DNA of 64,000 nucleotides, from positions 1,152,001-1,216,000 of the forward strand of contig OZ244034.1 of assembly GCA_965215185.1 (NCBI GenBank), written 5' to 3'. Shown in pieces: positions 2,788 to 64,000 of this stretch; positions within the stretch are counted from its first letter, which is position 1; each line of letters opens with the position of its first letter. This DNA is from Acidimicrobiia bacterium. Its GTDB lineage: Bacteria > Actinomycetota > Acidimicrobiia > Spongiisociales > ZC4RG35. Both the position numbers and the translations under genes were made by a program. The notes below the pieces were generated by a model that ran no database searches, was not told where the DNA came from, and saw only the letters and a program-made list of their open reading frames with translations.

Positions 2788-4647
2788 ATGGACCACCGCG
2801 ATCTTGATTCGGAGCGCCGGCATCTCGATCACGCCTCCGAGGGCCTGACATTGATAGACGTCCTCGACCGCGCCGCTCATGACCACGGGGAGCGCTCCGC
2901 AGCCCGATGGAAAGACCAAAGCGGTGAGTGGAAGGGCTTGAATTGGGCAGAAATGCGCGGTATCACCCACCAGGTCGCGGCGGGATTGCAAACTCTGGGG
3001 GTGGCGGAAGGCGACTTCGTGGGGATAATGGCGGGGGTACGTCCCGAACATGCCCTGGCGGATCTGGGGATTGTTCACACTGGCGCGGTCCCCATCACTT
3101 TCTATGAGACTCTCGCTCCTCCTCAAATCGCCTATATCGGCAAACAGACCGGCGTAAAAGCGGCGATTCTAGAGAATGCCGCGATGATGGAACGATGGGA
3201 CGAAGTCCGTTCCCAACTTCCCCGGCTGGAAGTTGTGGTTGCCATGGATGTTCCCGAAGAAGGACTGCCGGACGGTGTGATTTCTTGGGAGGAGTTGCTT
3301 AACAGGGGCGCAGAACAATTAATGGCCGATCCCGAGAGCGTCACTCGGGCGGCGCAGGAAGTCACTCCATCCCACCTTGTCACTCTGATCTACACCTCAG
3401 GGACAACCGGAGACCCCAAGGGGGTGATGGTCACCCACCGCAACGTGGTCTGGACGGTCGAGTCCGTAGCCCGTACCCTGGGCATGCCGGCCCATTTCCG
3501 GACGGTGGCTTATCTTCCTTTTGCACACATAGCGGCGCGAGCCGCCACCCACTATGCACCCATCTTTTTGGCAGGAGAGGTCTACTACTGCGCGGACCTT
3601 GCAGAAGTGGCCGACTACGCCCGGGCATGCCGCCCCCAGGCTTTTCTGGGAGTGCCGCGAGTGTGGGAGAAGTTTCAGGCCCGCCTCTTGGAGGCCCTCG
3701 AGGCCGATTCCAAACGGGACCTGGTGATGAAGGCCATTGCCAATGGCCGCGAGGTTGTGGAGAGCAGGGTAGCGGGAAACAGCGCGCCACTCGGAAAGCG
3801 AGTCAAGCATGCTCTTTTCAACCGACTGATCTTCTCAAAGATCAGAGCCCGGCTGGGAATGCAAGATCTGGTCTTGGCGGTGACGGCCGCCGCCCCGATC
3901 AGCCGAGATCTCCTGGTCTTCTTCAATGCCTTGGGAATCCCCCTCTACGAGATATACGGGATGAGTGAAAGCACCGGCCCGGCCACCTGCACCACCGCCG
4001 ACAATCCTGCACTGGGAACAGTTGGCAAGCCCTTCATGGGCGTGGAAGTGGAAACGGGAGAAGACGGGGAAATCAGGGTCAGGGGCGGGGTGGTCACCGA
4101 CGGCTATTACCGGCTTCCCCAAGCCACTGCCAATACCTTCTCCGAGGATGGTTGGCTTTACACCGGAGACTTGGGAGAGTGGGACCAAAACGGCAACCTG
4201 CGGATCGTGGGCAGAAAAAAAGAGATCATCATCACCTCCTCGGGAAAAAACGTCGCTCCCGCCACATTGGAGACCGCCATCTCCAGCCATCCGCTAGTGG
4301 GCGGGGTGTGCATGGTGGGCGATAACCGACCCTACCTGACCATGCTGGTTTCCCTGGATCCCCAAGAAGCTCCCAGGTGGGCCGAGCAGCAGGGAATGCC
4401 CGGCGACGATTGGGAGACTCTGACCACCCATCCCAAAGTAGTGGGAGAGATACAGTCCACCGTGGAGCGCGCCAATCGCCTCGTAGCACGAGCCGAACAA
4501 GTCAAGAAAACCGCCATCGTTCCGGACCAGTGGGACCCCGAGACCGGGGAGATCACCCCTTCCATGAAGGTCAAACGGCATGTCATCATCGACAAGTACG
4601 CTGGGTTGATCAACGAGCTATACCAGGACGGGACCACGGGATCCTGA
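2788..4647 (+). CDS. Long-chain fatty acid--CoA ligase
   Basis: AMP-binding motifs IYTSGTTGDPKG, YGMSES, GWLYTGDLG, GRKKEIIITSSGKN. ATG 2788 preferred to TTG 2761. Confidence 0.92.
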   Translation: MDHRDLDSERRHLDHASEGLTLIDVLDRAAHDHGERSAARWKDQSGEWKGLNWAEMRGITHQVAAGLQTLGVAEGDFVGIMAGVRPEHALADLGIVHTGAVPITFYETLAPPQIAYIGKQTGVKAAILENAAMMERWDEVRSQLPRLEVVVAMDVPEEGLPDGVISWEELLNRGAEQLMADPESVTRAAQEVTPSHLVTLIYTSGTTGDPKGVMVTHRNVVWTVESVARTLGMPAHFRTVAYLPFAHIAARAATHYAPIFLAGEVYYCADLAEVADYARACRPQAFLGVPRVWEKFQARLLEALEADSKRDLVMKAIANGREVVESRVAGNSAPLGKRVKHALFNRLIFSKIRARLGMQDLVLAVTAAAPISRDLLVFFNALGIPLYEIYGMSESTGPATCTTADNPALGTVGKPFMGVEVETGEDGEIRVRGGVVTDGYYRLPQATANTFSEDGWLYTGDLGEWDQNGNLRIVGRKKEIIITSSGKNVAPATLETAISSHPLVGGVCMVGDNRPYLTMLVSLDPQEAPRWAEQQGMPGDDWETLTTHPKVVGEIQSTVERANRLVARAEQVKKTAIVPDQWDPETGEITPSMKVKRHVIIDKYAGLINELYQDGTTGS

Positions 4648-4674
4648 ACCCACCCGAAGATAGGAGACTTTGCT

Positions 4675-5580
4675 TTGTCAGACATCACTTTTGACCGGAA
4701 GGTGGCGATCGTTACCGGAGCGGGGGGCGGTCTGGGGCGAAGCTACGCCCTGGAACTGGCCCGTCGGGGTGCTCGGGTAGTTGTAAACGACCTGGGTGGC
4801 GCCATTGACGGCACCGGTGGGGACAGCCGTCCCGCAGATCTGGTGGTCGAGGAGATCACGCGGCGGGGCGGAGAAGCGGTGCCCAATTACGACTCGGTAG
4901 CCAGTCCCAAAGCGGGATCGGCGATAGTCCAGACGGCTTTGGACGCCTTCGGCACTGTGGATGTGGTGATCAACAATGCCGGGATTCTGCGGGACCGAAG
5001 CTTTGGCAACCTCACCATTTCAGAATTGCAAGCGGTGATGGATGTCCATCTGCTGGGTGCATTCCATGTATCGATGCCCGCCTTTCCAATCATGAAAGAA
5101 AAGGGCTACGGCCGGTTTGTTTTCACCTCCTCCAATGCCGGGATCTTCGGCAACTTTGGGCAGACCAACTACGGGGCGGCCAAAGCCGGTCTGGTGGGAT
5201 TCTCCAACGTGCTGGCCATAGAGGGGGCCAGATACAACATCAAATCCAACGTGATTGCCCCGGTGGCCCGCACCAGGCTCACCGAGGAACTGCTGGGGCC
5301 TCTCACGGACTTTCTGGATCCCGACCAGGTCACTCCCATGGTGGTGTACCTGTGTTCAGAGAACAACCAGTTCTCCCACGAGATATTCACCGCCGGCGGG
5401 GGACGGTACGGTCGCATCTTCATCGGCACGAATCAGGGATGGTTCTCCGGCATGAAGGTCGTACCGTCAGTGGAAGAGATCCAAGACAACCTCGATCAGA
5501 TCCGAGACATCTCCACTTACGAAGTCCCGATGAGCTCCACAGAAGAAATCATGTTGATCGCTAAGGCAATGGGAGGCTGA
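4675..5580 (+). CDS. SDR, (3R)-hydroxyacyl-CoA dehydrogenase-like (MFE-2 N-terminal domain type)
   Basis: TGAGGGLG, VVVNDLGG, NNAGILRD, GNFGQTNYGAAK. Confidence 0.9.
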   Translation: MSDITFDRKVAIVTGAGGGLGRSYALELARRGARVVVNDLGGAIDGTGGDSRPADLVVEEITRRGGEAVPNYDSVASPKAGSAIVQTALDAFGTVDVVINNAGILRDRSFGNLTISELQAVMDVHLLGAFHVSMPAFPIMKEKGYGRFVFTSSNAGIFGNFGQTNYGAAKAGLVGFSNVLAIEGARYNIKSNVIAPVARTRLTEELLGPLTDFLDPDQVTPMVVYLCSENNQFSHEIFTAGGGRYGRIFIGTNQGWFSGMKVVPSVEEIQDNLDQIRDISTYEVPMSSTEEIMLIAKAMGG

Positions 5581-5583
5581 GTC

Positions 5584-6438
5584 GTGCCGATCGACATCGA
5601 AGCCGCTCTGGCCTCACAGCTCCCGGCCCGCCAATTCGCCTGGGACGAGGACCGGGTGATCCTCTATCACCTGGGTCTGGGAGCCGGAGCACCTCCCACC
5701 GATCCCCGTGAACTCTCCTATACCTATGAAGGCAACCTAGCGGTGCTGCCCTCCTTTGGCACGATCGCCGCCAATTCCTCAATGGCAACGATCTCCACTG
5801 CCAGGGGAGTGGACATCAACTGGGCGCTACTGCTGCACGGGGAACAGGACTTGGAGATCAGACAACCGATACCGCGAAGCGGCACAGTAACCAGCCAACC
5901 CCGCATTGCTCACATCTACGACAAAGGCCGGGCCGCCCTTATGGTGGTGGAGGTGACCTCCACCGACCAACAAACTGGGGAGTTGCTATTCATCAACCGG
6001 TCAACGTTGTTCATCCGTGGAGAAGGAGGATGGGGTGGAGATCCGGGTCCGAAGGCGTCAAATCCTGCGCCATCTCGGTCGCCCGATCACATAGTTCGCT
6101 CGCCCACCCTTCCCCAGCAGGCCCTCCTGTATCGCCTGTCGGGAGACAAGAACCCCCTGCATGCCGATCCGGCGTTTGCCACGCTGGGAGGATTCGACCG
6201 GCCCATTCTTCACGGCTTGTGCACCTATGGAATGGTTTGTAAAGCAGCGGTCAACACGGTGTTGGACGGGAACCCCGAACGCGCCCGACGCTATCAGGCC
6301 CGATTTGCGGGAGTGGTATTCCCTGGAGAAACCGTGGTGACCCGCATGTGGGAAGAAGGAGACAAGGTGCTCTTGGAAGCGGTGGTGGAAGAACGGGATG
6401 CGAAGGTCCTCTCCAATGCCGCTCTGTGGGTGTCCTAG
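5584..6438 (+). CDS. MaoC-family (R)-specific enoyl-CoA hydratase 2, double hot-dog fold
   Basis: LLHGEQ and hydratase-2 motif YRLSGDKNPLHADP...PILHGLCTYG. Confidence 0.92.
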   Translation: MPIDIEAALASQLPARQFAWDEDRVILYHLGLGAGAPPTDPRELSYTYEGNLAVLPSFGTIAANSSMATISTARGVDINWALLLHGEQDLEIRQPIPRSGTVTSQPRIAHIYDKGRAALMVVEVTSTDQQTGELLFINRSTLFIRGEGGWGGDPGPKASNPAPSRSPDHIVRSPTLPQQALLYRLSGDKNPLHADPAFATLGGFDRPILHGLCTYGMVCKAAVNTVLDGNPERARRYQARFAGVVFPGETVVTRMWEEGDKVLLEAVVEERDAKVLSNAALWVS

Positions 6439-6453
6439 AGAGAAAGGTTCAAA

Positions 6454-7641
6454 ATGACTACCACCGCCGTCCTGGATGTCATAGACCAAAGAGTCGACCG
6501 GTTGCTTTCCGAGCATCCGCCCGCTGAAACCAGTTCCCAGAAGTTTTGGGGTGCCCAGTTCGATTTGGGGCTGGCCTGGCCGTCCTTTCCCGAGGGATTG
6601 GGAGGGATGGGAGCCTCCCCCGGCGAGGCGACCGGGGTAACCCAGGCGCTGAGAGAAGCGGGCGCCCCCGCGGACAACATCCGCCGCAACTTGATCGGTT
6701 ACGGGATGGGCGCCCCGACGATCGTCGCCCACGGAACTGCGGACCAGCAGAACCGTTGGCTACGCAAACTGTTCACCACCGAGGAGATTTGGTGCCAGCT
6801 ATTCAGCGAGCCAGGGGCCGGCTCAGACGCGGCCGGCATCGGCACCAGCGCCATGCGGGACGGGGACGAGTGGGTGATAAACGGCCAAAAGGTGTGGACC
6901 ACCCTGGGACACAACGCCAAATGGGGGATGCTCACCGCCCGCACCAATCCCGCAGTCCCCAAGCATCGGGGCATCACCTATTTCATCATCGACATGGACC
7001 AGCCGGGGGTGGAGGTACGGCCGCTTCGCCAAATCACGGGTGAGGCCGAGTTCAACGAGGTCTATTTCACAGACGCCCGGGTGCCCGACGCCAACCGGCT
7101 GGGAGCAGTGGGGGAGGGGTGGAGGGTGTCAGTGACCACGCTCATGAACGAGCGGGTGATAATCGGGGAGAACATCAGTCCCCGCGGAGAGGGGGCCATC
7201 GCCACCGCCGTGGAGGTGTGGCGCAACTCGGACAGCGACGACCAGACGCGCCGAGATGAACTGATCAGCCTCTGGGTTGATGCGGAAGCGATACGGCTTA
7301 CCAGCCTACGCGACCGGATGGCCCGATTGCGAGGCACTCCGGGGCCAGAGGGATCCACCCTCAAGCTGCAGTGGGCAGAATTGCGCAAGAGCACCTTCGC
7401 TTGGGCCGTGGACATGATGGGCGCCGAAGGGATGCTCTATCCAGAGGCCTACGAATTCCGTACCCCCGAGACCATGGAGGTTGACCACAGTCCCCAATGG
7501 CAGTTCCTTCGTTCTAGAGCCAACTCCATCGAAGGTGGGACTTCCGAGATTCTTCGCAACGTGATCGGGGAGCGGGTGCTGGGTCTACCCCGCGAGCCCC
7601 GTGTGGATCTGGAACTTGCCTGGAAAGACATCGCCCGCTGA
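6454..7641 (+). CDS. Acyl-CoA dehydrogenase (FadE family)
   Basis: WCQLFSEPGAGSD, INGQKVWT, EFNEVYF, SIEGGTSEI. Confidence 0.92.
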   Translation: MTTTAVLDVIDQRVDRLLSEHPPAETSSQKFWGAQFDLGLAWPSFPEGLGGMGASPGEATGVTQALREAGAPADNIRRNLIGYGMGAPTIVAHGTADQQNRWLRKLFTTEEIWCQLFSEPGAGSDAAGIGTSAMRDGDEWVINGQKVWTTLGHNAKWGMLTARTNPAVPKHRGITYFIIDMDQPGVEVRPLRQITGEAEFNEVYFTDARVPDANRLGAVGEGWRVSVTTLMNERVIIGENISPRGEGAIATAVEVWRNSDSDDQTRRDELISLWVDAEAIRLTSLRDRMARLRGTPGPEGSTLKLQWAELRKSTFAWAVDMMGAEGMLYPEAYEFRTPETMEVDHSPQWQFLRSRANSIEGGTSEILRNVIGERVLGLPREPRVDLELAWKDIAR

Positions 7642-7699
7642 TCGCATCGCGTAGTCGGGCCGAGATCACAAACGCGGGAGAGGTATCCTTGCGCATGCC

Positions 7700-8668
7700 A
7701 TGGCGCGGGTATTAGTAACTAGGCCGATCAACCCCCAGGCGGCGGGATTGCTGTCCGAACACGAGGTCTGGACATGGCCGGAAAACCGGACCATGCCACG
7801 CGAATTGCTTTTGGAGCGAGTTGCTACAGCCGAGGGGGCGCTGGTCATGCTCACCGACCGCATCGATGACCAATTCCTGGAGGTCGGACGTCAGATTAAA
7901 GTGGTCTCACAGATGGCGGTGGGGGTTGACAACATCGATCTGGCGGCCTGCACCAGCCGGCGGATACCGGTGGGGCACACACCCGATGTTTTGACCGAGA
8001 CAACCGCCGATATGGCTTGGGCCCTGCTGGGCACCGCCGCCCGCCGGATCCCCGAAGGACGGGACTATGTGCTGGACGGGCACTGGCTTGAGTGGGACCC
8101 CGACCTTCTGTTGGGAAGCGATCTGTGGGGGGCCACTCTAGGCATAGTCGGAATGGGACGGATTGGCGCAGCCGTGGCTCGCAGAGCAGCCGGGTTTTCC
8201 ATGAGAATCGTTTACAACTCCCGCTCGCCTAAACCCACAGTGGAGGAAAAGACTGGAGCGGTCTACACCCGGTTGGATGATCTGTTGACACAATCCGACC
8301 ATGTGGTGGTAACCGCCTCCTATACCCCCGAAACACACCATCTGATCGACGCCGCGGCTCTGACCCAAATGAGACCAACCGCAACTTTGGTGAACATCGC
8401 CCGCGGTTCGCTCGTCGACCCCAAAGCCCTCTACGTCGCCCTCTCTTCCGGTGGCATCGGAGCAGCGGCGCTGGACGTAACCGAGCCCGAACCGATTCCA
8501 GCAAATCATCCGCTGCTGTCCCTTCCCAATTGTCTGGTGATACCCCACCTGGGTTCGGCTAGCCGCGGCACACGCCTAGCCATGGCCACCCGAGCGGCGG
8601 ACAACCTGCTGGCCGGGTTGGCGGGAGAACCCGTGCCTTGGTGCGCCAACCCAGAGGTCTATTCCTGA
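7700..8668 (+). CDS. D-isomer 2-hydroxyacid dehydrogenase (glyoxylate/hydroxypyruvate reductase-like)
   Basis: AVGVDNID, GIVGMGRIG, VNIARG, LDVTEPEP, PHLGSA. Confidence 0.92.
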   Translation: MARVLVTRPINPQAAGLLSEHEVWTWPENRTMPRELLLERVATAEGALVMLTDRIDDQFLEVGRQIKVVSQMAVGVDNIDLAACTSRRIPVGHTPDVLTETTADMAWALLGTAARRIPEGRDYVLDGHWLEWDPDLLLGSDLWGATLGIVGMGRIGAAVARRAAGFSMRIVYNSRSPKPTVEEKTGAVYTRLDDLLTQSDHVVVTASYTPETHHLIDAAALTQMRPTATLVNIARGSLVDPKALYVALSSGGIGAAALDVTEPEPIPANHPLLSLPNCLVIPHLGSASRGTRLAMATRAADNLLAGLAGEPVPWCANPEVYS

Positions 8669-8762
8669 TAAGACCTGGAGAGGTGCGGACGCAGAAACCT
8701 GTCACCTACCATATCTCAAGCTGAACAAGATGTTGAGATCAACATTAAGCTATACAAGAAGG

Positions 8763-9425
8763 TTAAACAGCCGGTTTCTTAGTCAGGACGGCGCCCGGTT
8801 GGACGGTCAGCAGGGCGCCTTGCCGGACTGAGAGGTGCGCAGTTGTCCCAACGAAGCGGTTGGAGAGGCCGCGGGTGCTCCCCGCCGGCAAGATGGCGTC
8901 GTTCAAAGACCATTGGAGACCCTGGGTGGTCACTCCGATGGCATGGCCACCCAGCGGTATGAGCGAAACCAAATCTCCCACTCTTCCGTGGAGAGCGGCT
9001 TGATGGCGGACCACAGTGGCCAGATCTTCCCCAGCCAGCCACAAGATCCGTGCGGCCGACCAGCGGTGATCCGCCAGCAACTCGGCATTTCCCACAAGGT
9101 GGTCCAATCTTCCTCCATGACCTCCCACCACGATCACCACATCACCGTGTCGCAGCGCCGCTTCCATCGCCAACTCCAAGTCTGTGTAGTCCTTGTCCTC
9201 GGAGTACCGCTCCACTTCGCCTTCATGTCGATCAGCAGCGTTAAAAGAAACCGAATCCAAATCCCCCACCAGTAAATCAGCCTTGAAACCCAGCCGGTGA
9301 GCATGATCGAGCCCCGAATCTGCGGCTATTGCAAACGCCTCCGAAGGTATCCAGCGCTCAACCTGAGGCGGGGGCGCCTCACCACCGGCAAAGATCACAA
9401 CTACCTGCTTCTTATGCTCAGTCAT
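8763..9425 (-). CDS. thiN: Thiamine diphosphokinase
   Basis: IAADSG, VGDLDS, KDYTDLE, GGRLDH, GLSN. Start placed at ATG 9425 (MTEHKK). Confidence 0.9.
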   Translation of the reverse strand: MTEHKKQVVVIFAGGEAPPPQVERWIPSEAFAIAADSGLDHAHRLGFKADLLVGDLDSVSFNAADRHEGEVERYSEDKDYTDLELAMEAALRHGDVVIVVGGHGGRLDHLVGNAELLADHRWSAARILWLAGEDLATVVRHQAALHGRVGDLVSLIPLGGHAIGVTTQGLQWSLNDAILPAGSTRGLSNRFVGTTAHLSVRQGALLTVQPGAVLTKKPAV

Positions 9426-9988: not shown

Positions 9989-11104
9989 TTGGCACCTGAA
10001 GGCGTCGTGAAGGCTATAACGAAACTAGCTGTTCTGACCTCGGGAGGCGACGCCCCTGGAATGAATGCCGCCATAGTCTCGGTGGCAAAGGTGGCGGCTT
10101 CTGCTGGGGTAGAAGTGGTGGGGGTTGAGGATGGTTACGAAGGGCTGATAAACGGACATTTGCAACGTCTCGTCAAGGCTGATCCACGATCAGGAACTCT
10201 GGTGCTGAGCCCGGAGCTGGCTGGGGCGGGAGGACGAGGGGGAACCATGCTGGGCACAGCCCGCTGCCCCCGTTTCCAGGATCCCGCATATCGGGCCCGG
10301 GCAGCCCGGGCGTTGCGCCACGCCGGCGTTGAAGGACTTGTGGTCATAGGTGGTAACGGTTCCATGGCAGGTGCTTACGCCCTGTGGTCGGAGCACCGGA
10401 TACCCGTAGTAGGTATCCCAGCTTCAATCGACAATGACATTGGACATACGCGGGAGGCGCTGGGAGTCGACACTGCGCTCAACACCATCGTGGACGCTTG
10501 CGATCGTATCACTGACACGGCAAGATCTCATCGTCGAGCCTTCATTGTTGAGGTAATGGGGCGCGATTGCGGGTACCTTGCGTTGGCGGGAGCCGTGGCA
10601 ACTCGCGCCGATGCTGTTCTCCTTCCCGAGAAGAACCCCGAGCTCCACCAAGTGTTGAAAAAGCTGGAAAGCACCGTCCGTCAAAGATTCTCGGACCATC
10701 GGGAGAAGAAAAAGGTACTGATCCTCAAGGCTGAAGGGGTCAAGATCCCCACCCAGACACTGGTCACCGATCTCTCAACCGCAATTTCGGACCTGGAAGA
10801 CGTGGAAGTGAGAGCAACCGTTTTGGGACACATCGTCCGTGGAGGTGACCCCACCTTTCGTGACAGACTGCTGGCTAGTCGATTCGCCCTTGTAGCAGTT
10901 CAGTCGATTCTGGCCGGGGCGGCGGGTGTGATGGTTTGCTGGTCGGCGTCCGATCAAGGAGATCCAACCAGCGATGCGTTCGTAAGGCTATTTCCGCTGG
11001 ATTCCGTGCTTCGGGAGACCGAGTCGCTGACCGAGGGAACCTCCGATCTCCAGAATGAAAGGATCCGCCGTTTGGAAGCCATCCATGGCGTCCTCGCCTT
11101 CTGA
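9989..11104 (+). CDS. pfkA: 6-phosphofructokinase (ATP-dependent type)
   Basis: LTSGGDAPGMN, GGTMLGTAR, IGGNGS, SIDND, VEVMGR, LGHIVRGG. Start may be GTG 10007. Confidence 0.92.
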   Translation: MAPEGVVKAITKLAVLTSGGDAPGMNAAIVSVAKVAASAGVEVVGVEDGYEGLINGHLQRLVKADPRSGTLVLSPELAGAGGRGGTMLGTARCPRFQDPAYRARAARALRHAGVEGLVVIGGNGSMAGAYALWSEHRIPVVGIPASIDNDIGHTREALGVDTALNTIVDACDRITDTARSHRRAFIVEVMGRDCGYLALAGAVATRADAVLLPEKNPELHQVLKKLESTVRQRFSDHREKKKVLILKAEGVKIPTQTLVTDLSTAISDLEDVEVRATVLGHIVRGGDPTFRDRLLASRFALVAVQSILAGAAGVMVCWSASDQGDPTSDAFVRLFPLDSVLRETESLTEGTSDLQNERIRRLEAIHGVLAF

Positions 11105-11340
11105 TCCCCGCAGAGGCAACGGTCACCACGGCATTGCGTCTTATAGGAGGCCTAGGCAGCGGGTTCTAGGACAGGGTGCCTTACTGCTCCAGGGAGCGGG
11201 GAGGGGGTGGCCCACATTGTCATCCTTGCAGATCACTTTGGGCCCCAGCAGATTTCATTGAAGGCCCGTGAAGAAGAGAACAGCAACCGTTCACAGACTC
11301 GCGATGACAAAGCCAAGGTTCCGCTGGGATCCGGAGGCTA

Positions 11341-11368
11341 ACTTAACATAACGTTTTTATCTTGAGGT
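11341..11368 (-). other. Degenerate dif-like (Xer) recombination site, inverted relative to the site at 11734
   Basis: Reverse complement reads ACCTCAAGATA-AAAACG-TTATGTTAAGT. The XerD-type arm is identical to the right-hand site. The XerC-type arm is shifted or degenerate. Confidence 0.55.
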
Positions 11369-11733
11369 CCTGGGTCGGCAGGGTCGGGTTTTGTTTCTGT
11401 CTCGTTTCTAAGCGGCAATCCCACACTCCGGGCGTAGGGTTTGCGTCTCCACCCGATGAGCCTTTGCACTCCGGTGGTCGGACATTCGCCTGATTCCGGC
11501 AGGTTCAGCAGTCCAGAGTGAGCCAATACCGTTTGCCGGGCGTAAATCCGTGAGAAGTGGTCTGACAAACCTTCCAGGCATCCGAAAGCTGTGTGGTTTA
11601 CACGGAGGCACAGGCAACCGGGAGGGTGGTAACACCATAAATATGGGGAAAGCGGGTTCTCGGGAACACACCAAGCCTTTCCAGATCAAGGGCCTGGACT
11701 TCCCGAGTTATATAAGGTCTTGCCTTTTCGGAT

Positions 11734-11761
11734 ATGTCCCATAATCACCGTTATGTTAAGT
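11734..11761 (+). other. dif-like XerC/XerD recombination site
   Basis: ATGTCCCATAA-TCACCG-TTATGTTAAGT has the 11-6-11 layout with ATAA/TTAT inner arms. The XerD arm is one base from E. coli TTATGTTAAAT. Confidence 0.75.
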
Positions 11762-12003
11762 AGCTGGGTGATACTCCCTCCAATGAGCGTATGTTTGTTG
11801 TCCGATCTCACGATAGTTGGCAATTTCTCACGTACTTGGCCATTCGTCTCACAGAGTTGGCCAATGTCTCAAATTCCTGTCAAAAGGATGGTTGCGTAAG
11901 GGGGTGAGGGATCCAAGTATGATCTGCCGCGAATTGAAGGATGCCTTCTCCAAGAGACTGCTCGCCCTTTAGCCATCGAGGTCCACCTCCGCGTCTGATA
12001 TAG

Positions 12004-12204
12004 TTGCTGTTGATGGGAAGCGAAGCACTAGCCGCGTGGGATGCCGTGACCGAATCTGACGAATGCACGGTAGCGGACATCGAAGAATACATGGGGGTTG
12101 TACCCGACCCCTCAGGCGACCTTGAGGCTGGCCGAACCGTTTTCCACGCCACCGACGAAGATTTTCTTGACTTCCTGACTTCACGGATGCACGAACCGGG
12201 CTAA
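12004..12204 (+). pseudogene. Probable gene remnant (acidic 66-aa C-terminal fragment) inside the transposon relic
   Basis: Protein-like composition, immediately preceded by an in-frame TAG. No family recognised. Confidence 0.3.
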
Positions 12205-12447
12205 ATCCCATCGGACATGGCCAGTGGTCATATCGAAAAAGGCGGGATCTTCGGTCAGGGCGGAGGGGGATGGCCCCGGGAATTGACTACCCCAACTTGC
12301 GATTCCAGTGCCTGTTGAGCATAGTGAGAGGTTGGGGCAGCACTCCAGCAACAGGGGGCGTCAGGCAGAGGATGCTGTGGGCGTTTGTTCACATTGATGG
12401 TTCGGGGCTGTCCTCTCCCCCACCGAACGCCAACCTCTAAATGCCCA

Positions 12448-12864
12448 GGCCATGTCTCACCGTAGTTGGCGAAATCTCAACAATGTGGCGAAATGTCTCA
12501 CGGTTTTGGCGAACGTCCCCTAGCGGACACGGGTCGCCGTTGGATAGCAGTCCGCTAATACAACTGGCATGGCGAACGCTCACTGTTTCCGTCGGGGTGA
12601 TCGACGGCGGGTTGGTCTATTTTGGGTATGTGTGGGCAGAGTTCCCACCCGAAATACTATTCAAGCGATAGTCGCGGGTTATCGCCGCCACATAGATATC
12701 CGGCACTATCCCCTCCCCCACCACTTGAACCGTTGACTGTCAAACCGCTCCCTCAGAGAGCGGCTCTCCGATTTCGCTAACTACGGTGAGACAACGACCC
12801 TTGGTTCCATCTCAATCCAGTGGCGAAACTGGGCGATTCCCGCCATATAGCGTGAGATCGGACA
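12448..12864. mobile_element. Nested second element of the same family (MITE-sized, ~417 bp)
   Basis: TCTCA repeats at 12455, 12475, 12496 and a degenerate one at 12516 repeat the 20/21/20 spacing, but the terminal TGT is lost. The opposite end GTGAGATCGGACA (12852-12864) has a second site 66 bp inside. Confidence 0.62.
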
Positions 12865-13155
12865 CGGGGCAGTTGACGGAAGCGCTCAATTCTGAGTTTC
12901 CCCAACATCGCAGGACCTTCTCCGATTTGGCCAACTACGGTGAGACAGAGTCTTGGGATTACCTCTCACAACCATGACAAGACGGGGGAATTTTGGCCAA
13001 CTACGGTGAGATCGGACAGTGTGGTTTCCCTCTCCCCTAACCACCCGTCGCTGATGGTTGGCGCCTCACTCTGATGATGGCGTCCCCGGCGGAAGCGCCA
13101 CCGACCGCTTGGTAGGATGGGTGAACCGCTACGGCTTGAAGGAAGGCTTCCGTCC

Positions 13156-13893
13156 ATGCCACCACAGAACTCGCACCCCAGTCACATCGCGTTACTGGTG
13201 GATGGAGACAACGCACAACCGTCCCTAATAGAGCCCATATTAACCGAGGTGGCGAAGCACGGCAGTATCACCACCAGGCGCATCTATGGAGACTGGACAA
13301 CACCTCAGATGTCCGGGTGGAAAGACGTTCTGCAGACCTACGCCATCCAACCTATTCAACAGTTCCGCTATACGGTGGGAAAGAACGCCACCGATAGTGC
13401 CTTGATAATCGATGCCATGGATCTGCTGCATGCCGGGGCGGTTGATGGATTCTGCATAGTGTCCAGCGATAGCGACTACACCAGATTGGCTACACGTATG
13501 CGCGAAGAGGGACTCTTTGTGATGGGGATAGGCCGCATGCAAACCCCCAGCTCCCTGGTTAACGCCTGTGAGGTGTTTGTTTACACCGAGAATCTCACTT
13601 CGTCGGAGCAAAACCCAGAAGACCGGGCTACACCCTCACAACCCTCCAAGTGGATCACTACGGTTGGGATTGCCGTAGAGACAGCTTTAGAGACAGGTAT
13701 AGAAGAAGACGGCTGGGTGATCCTCAGTATTGTCGGTAGCCAGATCCGCAAACTGGATCCCGCATTCGATCCCCGGACCTATGGATACTCACGATTGTCG
13801 CTCCTCGTCAAGTCGGAACCTGACAAGTTTGAAACTAGTAAGAGGGCAATTGGTGGGCACAAACAGCTCTACATAAGACGGTCTTCGAAATAG
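13156..13893 (+). CDS. NYN (LabA/DUF88, PIN-like) domain protein with C-terminal OST-HTH/LOTUS domain
   Basis: LLVDGDN, RIYGDW, GKNATDSALIIDAMD, IVSSDSDY, FDPRTYGYSRLS. Confidence 0.92.
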   Translation: MPPQNSHPSHIALLVDGDNAQPSLIEPILTEVAKHGSITTRRIYGDWTTPQMSGWKDVLQTYAIQPIQQFRYTVGKNATDSALIIDAMDLLHAGAVDGFCIVSSDSDYTRLATRMREEGLFVMGIGRMQTPSSLVNACEVFVYTENLTSSEQNPEDRATPSQPSKWITTVGIAVETALETGIEEDGWVILSIVGSQIRKLDPAFDPRTYGYSRLSLLVKSEPDKFETSKRAIGGHKQLYIRRSSK

Positions 13894-14075
13894 GCAGACG
13901 TAAAAGGCTCTGCTCTGGAGGGTCGGAACCCACCACAAGCGATGGCACCATGGGCAGGCTCGAGTAACCCGCACCTCCCTGTCCCCTGCCACCGGCTCCC
14001 CTCTGCTCAGCCAAGCCCGGCAAGCCCGCCGCCTGTCGCTCTGATCCATCCATAACGTGTTCGCAGGAGAAGAAG

Positions 14076-14528
14076 CTAGACGCGGCGGAAAGCAATCACC
14101 GGGATCCGCCGGCCGGTTGCGGAGCGGTAGGTAGCAAAGCGTGAATTGGCGGCCACCACCCGGTCGAAGACTGCGGCTCTCTCTTCCCCTCGGGTGATAC
14201 GAGCCTCGGCGGTCAAGCGTCCCCCCTTCACTTCCACCGAAAACTGAGAGTCGGCGGCGATGTTCAGGTACCACGCCGGATGGTGGTCCTGCCCGTAGTT
14301 GGAAGCCACCACGAAGAGATCCGAAGACTCCTCGAATCGGAAATGCAGCAAAGGTGAAGACCGCCGCTTGCCGCTCTTACGCCCCTTGGTCACAAGGAGG
14401 AACACTCTTTGCCCATCCAACCGGCCCAGAAATCCGCCACCGGAGAGACGGAACAGAAACCGCTGCGCCGGCACGAAGAACCACGCGATGATCAAGCGTT
14501 GATAGGTCGGCACTGCAGGCGCGTTCAC
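14076..14528 (-). CDS. Deazaflavin (F420)-dependent nitroreductase family oxidoreductase
   Basis: LLVTKGRKSGKRRSSPL, VVASNYG..HHPAWYLN, YRSATGRRIPV. Start uncertain. Confidence 0.88.
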   Translation of the reverse strand: MNAPAVPTYQRLIIAWFFVPAQRFLFRLSGGGFLGRLDGQRVFLLVTKGRKSGKRRSSPLLHFRFEESSDLFVVASNYGQDHHPAWYLNIAADSQFSVEVKGGRLTAEARITRGEERAAVFDRVVAANSRFATYRSATGRRIPVIAFRRV

Positions 14529-14583
14529 AAAAATGCAATTATCCCTTCCCGGAACACCACCCACCCAGGCCTGTCCGGGTCTG

Positions 14584-16227
14584 CTAGGCAGACTCGATCC
14601 CGGCCGCAGTCTCCAGGCCCAGTTCGGCGATGGAGACCTGGCGCATCTCCACCTTGCGAACCTTGCCGGTGACGGTCATCGGGAACCCGTCAACGAATTT
14701 CACGTATTGGGGGACCTTGAAGTGGGCGATGCGGCCCTGGCAGAATTCCTTGATTTCCTCGCCGGTAGCTTCAGCGCCTTCCCGTAGCTTGACCCAAGCC
14801 ATCACCTGCTCACCGTACTTGATGTCGGGTACGCCGATTACTTGGACATCTTCGATGGCCGGGTGCCCGTACAGGTATTCCTCGATCTCCCTGGGGTAGA
14901 TGTTCTCGCCTCCTCGGATGATCATGTCCTTGATCCGCCCGACGATGTTCACATAGCCCTCCGAGTCCATCGTGGCGAGGTCGCCGGAGTGCATCCAGCC
15001 CTCGGTGTCGATCGAAGCCTCGGTCCTCTCCGGTTCACTCCAGTAGCCCAGCATGACCGAGTAGCCGCGGGTGCACAGTTCGCCGTCCCTGCCCCGCTCC
15101 ACTGTTTTGCCGCTCTCGGGATCGATGATCTTGATCTCGACGTGGGGATGGACGCGCCCAACGGTGGAGACCCGCCTCTCGATGGTGTCTGTGGTCATCG
15201 TCTGCGTTGACACCGGGGATGTCTCAGTCATGCCGTAGGCGATGGTCACGTCTGTCATGTTCATGTCGGAGATGACCTGCTTCATGACCTCCACCGGGCA
15301 CGGTGATCCGGCCATGATCCCGGTGCGAAGAGACGACAGGTCGAAGGACTTCAGATCAGGGTGAGCAAGCTCCGCGATGAACATGGTCGGCACCCCGTAT
15401 AGGCTCGTACACCTCTCCCCCTGCACCGCGGTCAGAACCTCCTCCGGATTGAATCCCGGGCCCGGGAAAATGATCGCCGACCCGTGGGTGGTGCACGCAA
15501 GGGTGCCCAGCACCATACCGAAACAGTGGTATAGGGGGACCGGGATGCACACTCGATCTTCTTCGGTGTAGGCGCACGCCTCACCGATGAAGAAGGCGTT
15601 GTTCAGGATGTTGGAGTGGCTGAGGGTGGCGCCCTTGGGGAACCCTGTGGTACCGGAGGTGTATTGGATGTTGATGGCGTCGTCGTGATGAAGGCCGGCC
15701 ATCCGCTCGGCCAGAACTTCTTCCATGCCGTCGCGGGCTGGTTCCATCAGGGCATCCCACTGGGGCGTGTCGAGGAAGATCACCCGCTCAAGACCGTCCA
15801 GTTCGTCCCGGACCTCGGAGATCATGGCCCGGTAGTCGGAGGACAGGTATTTCTGAGCCGAGACCAGTACCCGGCATCCCGATTGCGCCAGCGCATAGCG
15901 CACCTCGTGAGTGCGATAGGCGGGGTTGATGTTTACCAGGATCACGCCGACCTTGGCGGTTGCGTACTGGAGCCACACCCACTCCGCGCAGTTGGGGCTC
16001 CAGATACCTACCCGGTCACCGACCTCAAGGCCGAGACGGAGCAGACCCAGCGCCAGCCGGTCAACCGATTCGTTGAAGCTCCTGTAGCTCTGGCAGATTT
16101 CCTGGTGCATCGAGACTAGAGCGTCCCTGTCCGGGAACCGGGCCACCATCGACTCGAGGTTCTGACCGATGGTCTCCTGCAATAGGGGCGTCGCTGTGTC
16201 ACCGCTTGCGTACGCTAAGGCCGGCAT
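14584..16227 (-). CDS. AMP-binding acyl-CoA synthetase
   Basis: [48 protein letters not shown]. Confidence 0.93.
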
Positions 16228-16346
16228 GTCTCTCTCTCGGTCGATGACCTCTCAGGGGACTATATCAGCCTGTCAAGAAGGGCCTCCTGCTGGTCGTGGT
16301 CGGATCGCATAAATACAAGCCGGGGCGCAGCCCGAAGCCTGGCAAA

Positions 16347-16383
16347 ACGGGGGATTTCTCGCCAGGTACCGTGAGATAGGACA
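16347..16383. mobile_element. Isolated, diverged third transposon end of the same family
   Basis: ACGGGGGATTTCTCGCCAGGTACCGTGAGATAGGACA matches 12982-13018 at 30 of 37 positions by manual count, in the same orientation. Confidence 0.62.
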
Positions 16384-63420: not shown

Positions 63421-63538
63421 GTCCGGCAGTGACCTACTCTCCCGGGGTTTTGCAACCCAAGTACCATCGGCGCTGTCAGGTTTCACTTCCGTGTTCGGAA
63501 TGGGAACGGGTGGTTCCCCAACGCTATCGCCACCGGAC
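63421..63538 (-). rRNA. rrf: 5S ribosomal RNA
   Basis: Minus strand contains CCCGTTCCCATTCCGAACACGGAAGTGAAACC, GCCGATGGTACT and GGGAGAGTAGGTC. The termini pair. Ends approximate. Confidence 0.96.
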
Positions 63539-63576
63539 AACCAAACTCACAACAAGCAAATCATCTGGGATTCTCT

Positions 63577-64000
<424 letters not shown>

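Follow-up and report, generated by a model that had tools for sequence, protein, structure and literature searches.

Probable remains of serially inserted Tn7-like transposons beside the chromosomal dif site of an Acidimicrobiia bacterium

Tn7-like elements are studied for their safe and precise choice of insertion sites and are being engineered for programmable DNA insertion. The Tn5053/Tn402 transposons, known as "res-site hunters", use a TniA/TniB/TniQ machine to insert beside a multimer-resolution site occupied by its recombinase; they have unequal ends with repeated sites and produce a 5-bp duplication, their target is the serine resolvase res site of plasmids or transposons, and they lack TnsA. 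Integrative mobile elements exploiting Xer recombination (IMEX) and dif modules move by Xer recombination, have dif-like sites at their boundaries, and insert into dif itself. Here we describe a locus in a 64,000-nucleotide (nt) stretch of the genome of an Acidimicrobiia bacterium (contig OZ244034.1, positions 1,152,001 to 1,216,000; hereafter "the window", whose numbering we use throughout). Positions 11799-13018, together with a relic at 16304-16383, are very probably the decayed remains of at least three non-autonomous Tn7-like transposons that inserted serially about 37 nt outside the XerD arm of dif.

A Tn7-like clade dominated by Actinobacteria was recognised by Benler et al. 2021 (PMC8649781), who state that none of its members has been characterised; the words dif and Xer are absent from the main text of that paper, and its supplementary tables might list attachment sites. 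One-orientation hunters of dif and pdif sites are known in the IS1202 family of insertion sequences (IS), namely the ISAjo2 type (Harmer, Pong and Hall 2023, PMC10132070), which are 1.5-kb IS with a single TnsB-like DDE transposase of 441-457 amino acids (aa), two sites per end, and no cargo. In Tn6022, the selector TnsF derives from an inactivated tyrosine recombinase and targets comM (Faure et al. 2023, PMC10293859); in a paper on Acinetobacter Tn6022, a XerC-like gene and a dif-like site are cargo and not target.

An earlier note, made from the letters of the window, had claimed that a motif of about 16 bp recurs there in a packed and a spaced geometry. This was borne out: the loose form TCTCA-N5-7-TGGC occurs 14 times in the window compared with 2.06 expected, none of 100 dinucleotide shuffles reaches 14, and ten of the 14 matches fall inside 11806-13011, with one more at 16361-16376. 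The full site of these elements is about 20 bp long (TCTCAC-N4/5-TTGGCGAA). We aligned 21 packed and 12 spaced ends, built an nhmmer model of each end type from the alignment, and found the end layout to be conserved across all of them: packed ends carry four direct sites with a 20-21-nt period behind TGT, and spaced ends carry a terminal, an inverted, and an inner site behind ACA, consistent with putative sites of the transposase-binding type. The features of the locus are the following:

11734..11761, plus strand: chromosomal dif, 28 bp, with XerC arm ATGTCCCATAA at 11734-11744, spacer TCACCG, and XerD arm TTATGTTAAGT at 11751-11761.
11794..11798, plus strand: the 5 nt ahead of the first terminus, TTTGT, a position duplicated in relatives (the equivalent in relative G011 is TCTGT).
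11799..11885, plus strand: packed end P1, with terminus TGTCCGATCTCAC, sites at 11806-11821, 11826-11840, and 11847-11861, and a degenerate fourth site at 11867.
11886..12452, no strand: body of element 1, gene-less and without a spaced end of its own.
12453..12512, plus strand: truncated packed end P2, with sites at 12455, 12475, and 12496; the terminal TGTCCGA is lost, and the end is joined to element 1 at a TCTC microhomology.
12513..12764, no strand: body of element 2, gene-less.
12765..12864, minus strand: spaced end S1, with inner site 12776-12791, inverted site 12810-12824 (plus strand), and terminal site 12842-12857, ending in ACA at 12864.
12919..13018, minus strand: spaced end S2, an orphan without a partner packed end, with sites 12930-12945 and 12996-13011, ending in ACA at 13018.
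16304..16383, minus strand: third spaced-type end S3, a relic past the AMP-binding gene, with terminus TGTCCTATCTCAC on the minus strand.

Both of the packed arrays that had been proposed exist, with their first three sites in place; the proposed fourth sites at 11867 and 12516 are degenerate, the former nevertheless aligning with the fourth site of relatives and the latter being doubtful, and the second array lacks the TGTCCGA terminus. P1 is recognised by the packed-end model with an E-value of 3.5e-19 and shares 95% identity with the first of the elements in G011, a relative from the same genus, and P2 matches model positions 8-76 (E 2.6e-14). The two spaced ends expected to finish at 12864 and 13018 are also present. 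S1 (spaced-end model, E 4.7e-25) and S2 (E 1e-23; 80% identity to a spaced end of relative G016) were reported by a repeat finder as a 100-nt direct repeat of 70% identity; each finishes with GTGAGATCGGACA, has two same-strand sites 66 nt apart, and contains a third site in inverted orientation. S3 matches spaced-end model positions 1-80 (E 7.8e-13), and homology to G011 ends exactly at 16303. The outer termini, TGTCCGATCTCAC at 11799 and GTGAGATCGGACA, form the TGT/ACA inverted repeat that had been described, 23 nt long and 91% complementary. No other copies of these ends were found in the 3.12-Mb genome, save a possible relic at genome position 1996773.

The stretch 11799-13018 holds no convincing gene, and the relics here are inert debris. 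Three open reading frames (ORFs) in the body of element 1, in the range of 51-90 aa, gave no Pfam match. No Rfam family matches 11100-13200, even at E-values up to 10, and no tRNA was found within the window; RNase P RNA was considered for 11360-11720 and ruled out, as that region has no Rfam match. The relics are gene-less and have terminal inverted repeats, in keeping with the suggestion that they resemble miniature inverted-repeat transposable elements, and the intact copies in G011 are gene-poor as well. Within element 2, a stretch of about 30 nt (12546-12577) behaves as a short dispersed repeat, recurring with 91-94% identity near 505882, 1421700, and 2413933 in the genome and four times in G011.

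The landmark beside these ends was evaluated with several lines of evidence. The 28-bp site is the sole match in the genome at four or fewer mismatches, and the 11-nt XerD arm occurs twice in the genome, both times at this locus. Cumulative GC skew peaks at 1.11-1.16 Mb, where the window starts at 1.152 Mb, and we therefore place the replication terminus at the dif locus. In relatives of the same genus, PFK and NYN likewise lie on either side of the site. A XerD-like protein encoded in the genome reaches 305 bits on the XerD model and, on NF001399, 317 bits, over the cut-off of the latter; a XerC-like protein is also encoded and scores 290 bits, under the equivalog cut-off. Being unique, located at the GC-skew switch, conserved in the genus, and accompanied by XerC- and XerD-like genes, the dif at 11734-11761 is genuine. 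The XerD arm ends at 11761, and the TGT at 11799 lies 37 nt from it.

Two further features were observed around this site. The second XerD arm (TTATGTTAAGT on the minus strand) forms a perfect 13-nt inverted repeat between 11341-11353 and 11749-11761, has a weak XerC-like partner, and faces dif over a 395-nt segment that is not part of the TGT/ACA elements. This segment is single-copy in the genome, contains no Pfam-matching ORF, has no Rfam match, and gave no BLAST match in 30 relatives; its layout recalls a dif module with inverted Xer sites at its edges. In addition, the element terminus TGTCCGATCT at 11799-11809 resembles the outer XerC arm at 11734-11744 (ATGTCCCATAA; TTGTCCGATAA in relative G004), a resemblance that may be due to chance, and its orientation to the crossover centre is unlike that of an Xer site.

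To place the 37-nt distance in a wider context, we collected copies of the ends from other genomes. Among 201 genomes of the order, nine gave matches in a pattern search, and more copies came from public contigs labelled Acidimicrobiia, Acidimicrobiales, and a few other phyla. A first scan of this collection, using a pattern with 15 fixed bases, returned 118 stretches compared with about 139 expected by chance according to our own estimate; these were therefore taken as mostly noise, and members were chosen with the nhmmer end models, which resulted in a survey set of 34 distinct packed ends. The association with Xer sites on which the earlier note had staked its reading extends beyond the window: for 16 of the 34 packed ends, a dif-like site (ATAA-N6-TTAT) is 33-40 nt away, at offsets of 33, 34, 35, 36 (five ends), 37 (four), 38, 39 (two), and 40 nt, with the 34-nt offset, that of G004, read by eye. 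One more lies 37 nt from an XerD arm alone, two lie 49-51 nt from an XerD arm alone, and two, both in G192, lie exactly 37 nt from the palindrome GCACATAT-N7-ATATGTGC. Seven ends follow directly behind another element, and for the remaining six no site was recognised, including two Microbacterium copies that have another conserved flank in common.

Orientation is as regular as distance. The XerD-arm side of dif is used in 14 of the 16 cases and the XerC-arm side in two, from two genomes, and in G196 dif is occupied on both sides; the end proximal to the site is the packed end in 19 of 19 cases (the 16 at dif-like sites, the one at 37 nt, and the two at 49-51 nt). The 33-40 nt between dif and terminus are not conserved across genomes, which argues for ruler-type targeting over homology-dependent recombination. 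At the two G192 loci (L027 and L028), the palindrome, read as GCACATAT-GGGACGG-ATATGTGC 37 nt ahead of the packed ends, is an alternative landmark; both loci contain tyrosine recombinase ORFs, with at least four homologues in the window's own genome. The wider family also includes another target geometry: in Saccharopolyspora (L098), a packed end lies only 5 nt from a long inverted repeat that resembles a hairpin (TCTCAAGTCCAATGTCGTA ... TACGACATTGGACTGAGA, before position 2001).

Within the genus, a pattern search of 17 genomes found ends in four (G000, G004, G011, and G016), with end arrays at the dif locus only; the other matches were single sites, of which one more is in G004 and two more are in G000, and one match with two mismatches is in G005. 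Seven relatives (G001, G002, G003, G007, G009, G012, and G015) have dif with no such ends beside it. This distribution bears on the possibility that the arrays are immobile, host-functional terminus DNA, such as polar fork-trap sites or accessory sites for Xer/FtsK. The arrays do lie at the GC-skew switch with one orientation facing the other, as fork traps do, but they are present in just four of the 17 genomes and vary in copy number and content from none beside dif in the seven relatives to at least four copies with different cargo in G011; in other Actinomycetota, moreover, the same ends occur at sites other than dif and enclose transposase operons. We give this explanation almost no credence.

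The clearest picture of the undecayed state comes from G011 (L020), which has four complete elements in tandem at 3506-4743, 4762-6773, 6779-8044, and 8050-8899, each running from packed end to spaced end and measuring 0.85-2 kb. TCTGT stands ahead of element 1 and after elements 2, 3, and 4, and the remaining junction begins with TCTGA. These recurrent spacers are the expected trace of repeated insertion in one 5-bp target that is duplicated each time. Near-match duplications, with four of five positions identical, were found in G016 and G192. The G011 and G004 elements carry small cargo of the defence or toxin-antitoxin kind (DUF433, DUF7689, DUF6338, and a weak match to HEPN), and no transposase was detected among the element ORFs scanned in these two genomes.

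Comparison with this array also accounts for the arrangement in the window. Positions 11734-12223 and 12213-12462 are 95% and 98.8% identical to G011 element 1, respectively, and 12676-12864 is 86% identical to the end of G011 element 2. At 12462, G011 element 1 enters its own spaced end, whereas the window enters a packed end that lacks its first 7 nt, with TCTC shared at the junction; the simplest reading of these alignments is that copy 1 and copy 2 were fused by a deletion across a tandem junction. The packed-packed-spaced-spaced order would then reflect tandem copies and deletions between them. The earlier note had called the ends "nested" and the family possibly "self-targeting", and on both points the G011 array suggests otherwise: tandem is the better description, and the identical 5-bp spacers are consistent with a single position, set by dif, having been used repeatedly, and not with attraction to earlier ends. 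Its central proposal of repeated insertion by a single Tn7/Tn5053-like family, 37 nt from the XerD arm, followed by decay, is supported by the offsets in relatives and by the linkage of related ends to tns genes described below.

The junction between the G011 copies raises an alternative in which the elements would be cassettes that move by site-specific recombination, in the manner of IMEX or integrons. Reading GTGAGATCGGACA-TCTGT-TGTCCGATCTCAC, this junction is a perfect 13-5-13 palindrome that could be a recombinase core, the repeated sites could then be arm-type sites of a tyrosine recombinase, as in the attP of phage lambda, tyrosine recombinase ORFs occur in the two G192 loci, and the targets are themselves recombinase sites. 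A homology-dependent crossover, however, would need a half-site resemblance on the chromosomal side, and none is seen: across genomes, near-identical termini adjoin unrelated 5-nt flanks (TTTGT, TCTGT, GCCGG, TTAGC, CCGGT, CTCGC, and GTTCG). Moreover, an all-against-all comparison of element ORFs recovered no common protein except recurrent Fic and DUF4143-type cargo, and no common recombinase, while homologous ends elsewhere enclose tnsABC-tniQ operons with 5-bp duplications. Recombination cassettes therefore appear highly improbable.

These operons were found with the end models from the Acidimicrobiia copies, which recognise ends in Nocardiopsis, Microtetraspora, Streptomyces, and Pseudarthrobacter. 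Linkage of related ends to a DDE transposase, the other point on which the earlier note's reading depended, is thus seen in other Actinomycetota, where tnsA-like, tnsB, tniB, and tniQ genes occur. In Nocardiopsis alkaliphila (L165), a packed-type end at 1103 is followed by cargo (pentapeptide, AbiJ, and AAA_15/21), a tnsA-like ORF, a 789-aa tnsB with rve and Mu-transpos_C domains, tniB, tniQ, and a spaced-type end at 13455; a 256-nt copy adjoins this autonomous element, and N. terrae has the same operon. In Microtetraspora (L051/L167), whose termini (TGTCCGATCTCAT) are the closest to those of the window, a tnsA-like ORF comes after the packed end and tnsB-tniB-tniQ stand ahead of the spaced end. 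The Streptomyces packed end (L214) lies about 300 nt upstream of a putative tnsA start and about 1 kb upstream of a tnsB match, and in Pseudarthrobacter tniB stands beside a spaced-type end in both chromosome and plasmid copies. Several copies in relatives show the 5-bp target duplications that the earlier note had proposed looking for: besides the four occurrences of TCTGT in G011, GAGAT is a perfect duplication at both flanks of the N. alkaliphila element, and TCTGC stands at both flanks in Microtetraspora, read from two contigs. A spaced-end pattern with one extra N matches a sister set of ends in Micrococcales and Mycobacteria and not the Acidimicrobiia copies.

The same evidence bears on the nearest rival explanation, in which a single TnsB-like transposase of the IS1202/ISAjo2 type mobilises the elements, perhaps contacting Xer on dif directly, and no heteromeric Tn7-type machine is involved. 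Members of the IS1202 family share TGT/ACA ends, 3-5-bp duplications, an internal second binding site, and insertion beside dif or pdif (PMC10132070). Their insertions, however, lie 3-5 bp from the XerC side and those described here 33-40 nt away, mostly on the XerD side; the ends here have four and three sites in an asymmetric, Tn7-like layout; relatives with homologous ends encode tnsA-like, tniB, and tniQ genes next to tnsB; and no TnsB-like gene of 440-460 aa was found among the element ORFs scanned. We consider a single-transposase system of this kind very unlikely.

A number of observations weigh against a Tn7-like origin of the window relics. The window flanks have no matching 5-nt repeat, with TTTGT at the start compared with CGGGG after 12864 and GTGTG after 13018, although this fits a history of deletion. 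No tnsA, tnsB, tniB, or tniQ was found in the window, and Mu-transpos_C and TniQ gave no match in the window's own genome in searches whose positive controls were also silent. The 19 rve matches in that genome are all in frames of at most 307 aa, which is the size of IS transposases. About 175 ORFs in and around Acidimicrobiia-type copies contained no TnsA, TnsB, TniB, or TniQ domain, the only transposase traces among them being fragments of IS110, IS3-like, and ISL3 elements; in five element-bearing genomes, TniB matches occurred only in frames of 828-943 aa at 34 bits or less. End-model matches in the distant relatives have nhmmer E-values of 1e-3 to 1e-10 in small search spaces. A TnsB-based locus search identified 514 relatives, of which 80 were retained, all from other Actinomycetota, and only three of these 80 loci match the end models. 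Lastly, no dif is visible next to the autonomous relatives found, and among the Acidimicrobiia copies examined there is no autonomous dif-targeting copy. The autonomous copies that the earlier note had suggested looking for therefore exist as tns operons in distant relatives with homologous ends and not among these Acidimicrobiia copies, and the Tns link is drawn from end homology with those relatives. Having no Tns genes, the window copies are classed as non-autonomous derivatives that would have been mobilised in trans, by a transposase that may reside on an unassembled or lost replicon.

Two candidate mobilisers were tried and rejected. IS21 was dismissed since the only rve match in G016, a 2.2-kb contig of IS21 (istA/istB), lacks the site motif, and in G192 no sites were found near an rve gene located 23 kb from a packed end. 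Viral contigs gave no match to either end pattern. Metagenome contigs gave 13 end-pattern matches, three of which belong to the family (the L096 contig, L350, and L347), and no tns gene was found in the L096 ORFs and the three L350 ORFs scanned.

With these points weighed, serial Tn7-like insertion remains our preferred explanation. Successive insertions would all have used the same position, about 37 nt outside the XerD arm, with the packed end always facing dif, each creating a 5-bp target duplication and newer copies pushing older ones outward into a tandem stack. In the window, one deletion, at the TCTC microhomology, would have taken away the spaced end of copy 1 together with the initial 7 nt of copy 2, and a second would have removed a further copy except for its spaced end. 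By analogy with Tn7, a TnsB-type DDE transposase may bind the repeated sites, and a TniB/TnsC ATPase may bridge it to a TniQ-type selector; this selector would read dif, or the Xer proteins bound there, and thereby set both the distance of about 37 nt and the orientation. The use of dif from either side and of another palindrome at the same 37 nt hints, and only hints, that a recombinase-DNA complex or some symmetric feature is what is recognised.

A broader proposal, which we regard as possible and put forward tentatively, is that a Tn7-like lineage has Xer-type recombination sites as its address. It would use either side of dif, as well as an unrelated palindrome of recombinase style, at a fixed offset of about 37 nt, maybe by docking on bound recombinases and not on the DNA sequence. 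The Acidimicrobiia copies would then be almost exclusively transposase-less cassettes, many with defence or toxin-antitoxin-type genes, that are stacked at the terminus in an integron-like manner and mobilised in trans by a non-resident machine.

Other observations concern the surroundings of the stack. DNA without TGT/ACA ends also separates dif from NYN in G009 (6.6 kb, L018), G012 (3.3 kb, L019), and G007 (1.2 kb, L022), and other kinds of insert therefore use the dif flank too. G015 has about 4.2 kb of additional DNA between PFK and dif and a second dif-like site, TTGTCCCATAA-GATATA-TTACGGGTAAC, 13 nt ahead of the true dif (L021, about 6003-6067); this extra DNA looks like an IMEX-like element integrated via Xer recombination. 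In the window, NYN and F420H2-quinone-reductase genes follow the stack (13117-16383), and both are absent in G011 and G004, where a truncated packed-type end adjoins the AMP-binding gene (L020 9700-9760; L155 8053-8065); in the window, S3 lies beyond that gene. Deletions that extend into host genes have reshaped the dif flank. At the window edge (63421-64000), a 5S rRNA gene (63421-63537) and the 3' end of a 23S rRNA gene (63575-64000) lie on the minus strand.

The interest of the locus lies in the family and its address, the window relics themselves being inert. A family that lands about 37 nt from dif, on either side and also at another recombinase-type palindrome, would add a new class of attachment site, and reading a recombinase-DNA complex would be a possible new selector principle, parallel to the "res hunters" of Tn5053 and the dif hunters of IS1202. 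It would also mark the dif flank of Acidimicrobiia as a hot spot that collects small cargo cassettes, with cargo families that include Fic, KAP NTPase, GmrSD, HEPN, DUF433, and AAA_21.

In a non-exhaustive literature search, we found no heteromeric Tn7-like family that targets dif and no dif offset of about 37 nt for such a class, and this address thus appears to be undescribed for Tn7-type elements. The suggestion of an undescribed dif-seeking family would hold for the family itself, its offset, and its end architecture, which differ from those of IS1202, and not for dif-seeking as such, which is known from IS1202/ISAjo2 (PMC10132070). With IS1202, which has a TnsB-like DDE transposase as do the autonomous relatives here, the elements share dif hunting in one orientation, TGT/ACA ends, and, in relatives, a 5-bp duplication; unlike IS1202, which sits 3-5 bp from the XerC arm, they lie at 33-40 nt, mostly on the XerD side, and have four plus three sites and cargo. 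Accumulation at dif, often in tandem, is a feature in common with IMEX and dif modules, but the ends here are TGT/ACA without a dif-like core, and an intact dif lies about 37 nt away. Compared with Tn5053/Tn402, the target here is the chromosomal dif, and the autonomous relatives have a TnsA-like ORF. Tn6022 with its TnsF provides a precedent for a Tn7-like element that uses Xer-family architecture in target choice, although no TnsF-like gene was noticed here and dif targeting was not found for Tn6022 in the accessible text of PMC10293859. The Nocardiopsis and Microtetraspora elements differ in encoding tnsA-like, tnsB, tniB, and tniQ genes, all of which are missing from the window and from the Acidimicrobiia copies examined, and their targets are not visibly dif, unlike those of the Acidimicrobiia copies. 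The closest likeness is nonetheless to the Actinobacteria-clade Tn7-like elements met in this work, with which the elements share TGT/ACA termini, a site of about 20 bp in packed and spaced arrays, the 5-bp duplications seen in relatives of the window copies, and cargo rich in defence and toxin-antitoxin-type genes.

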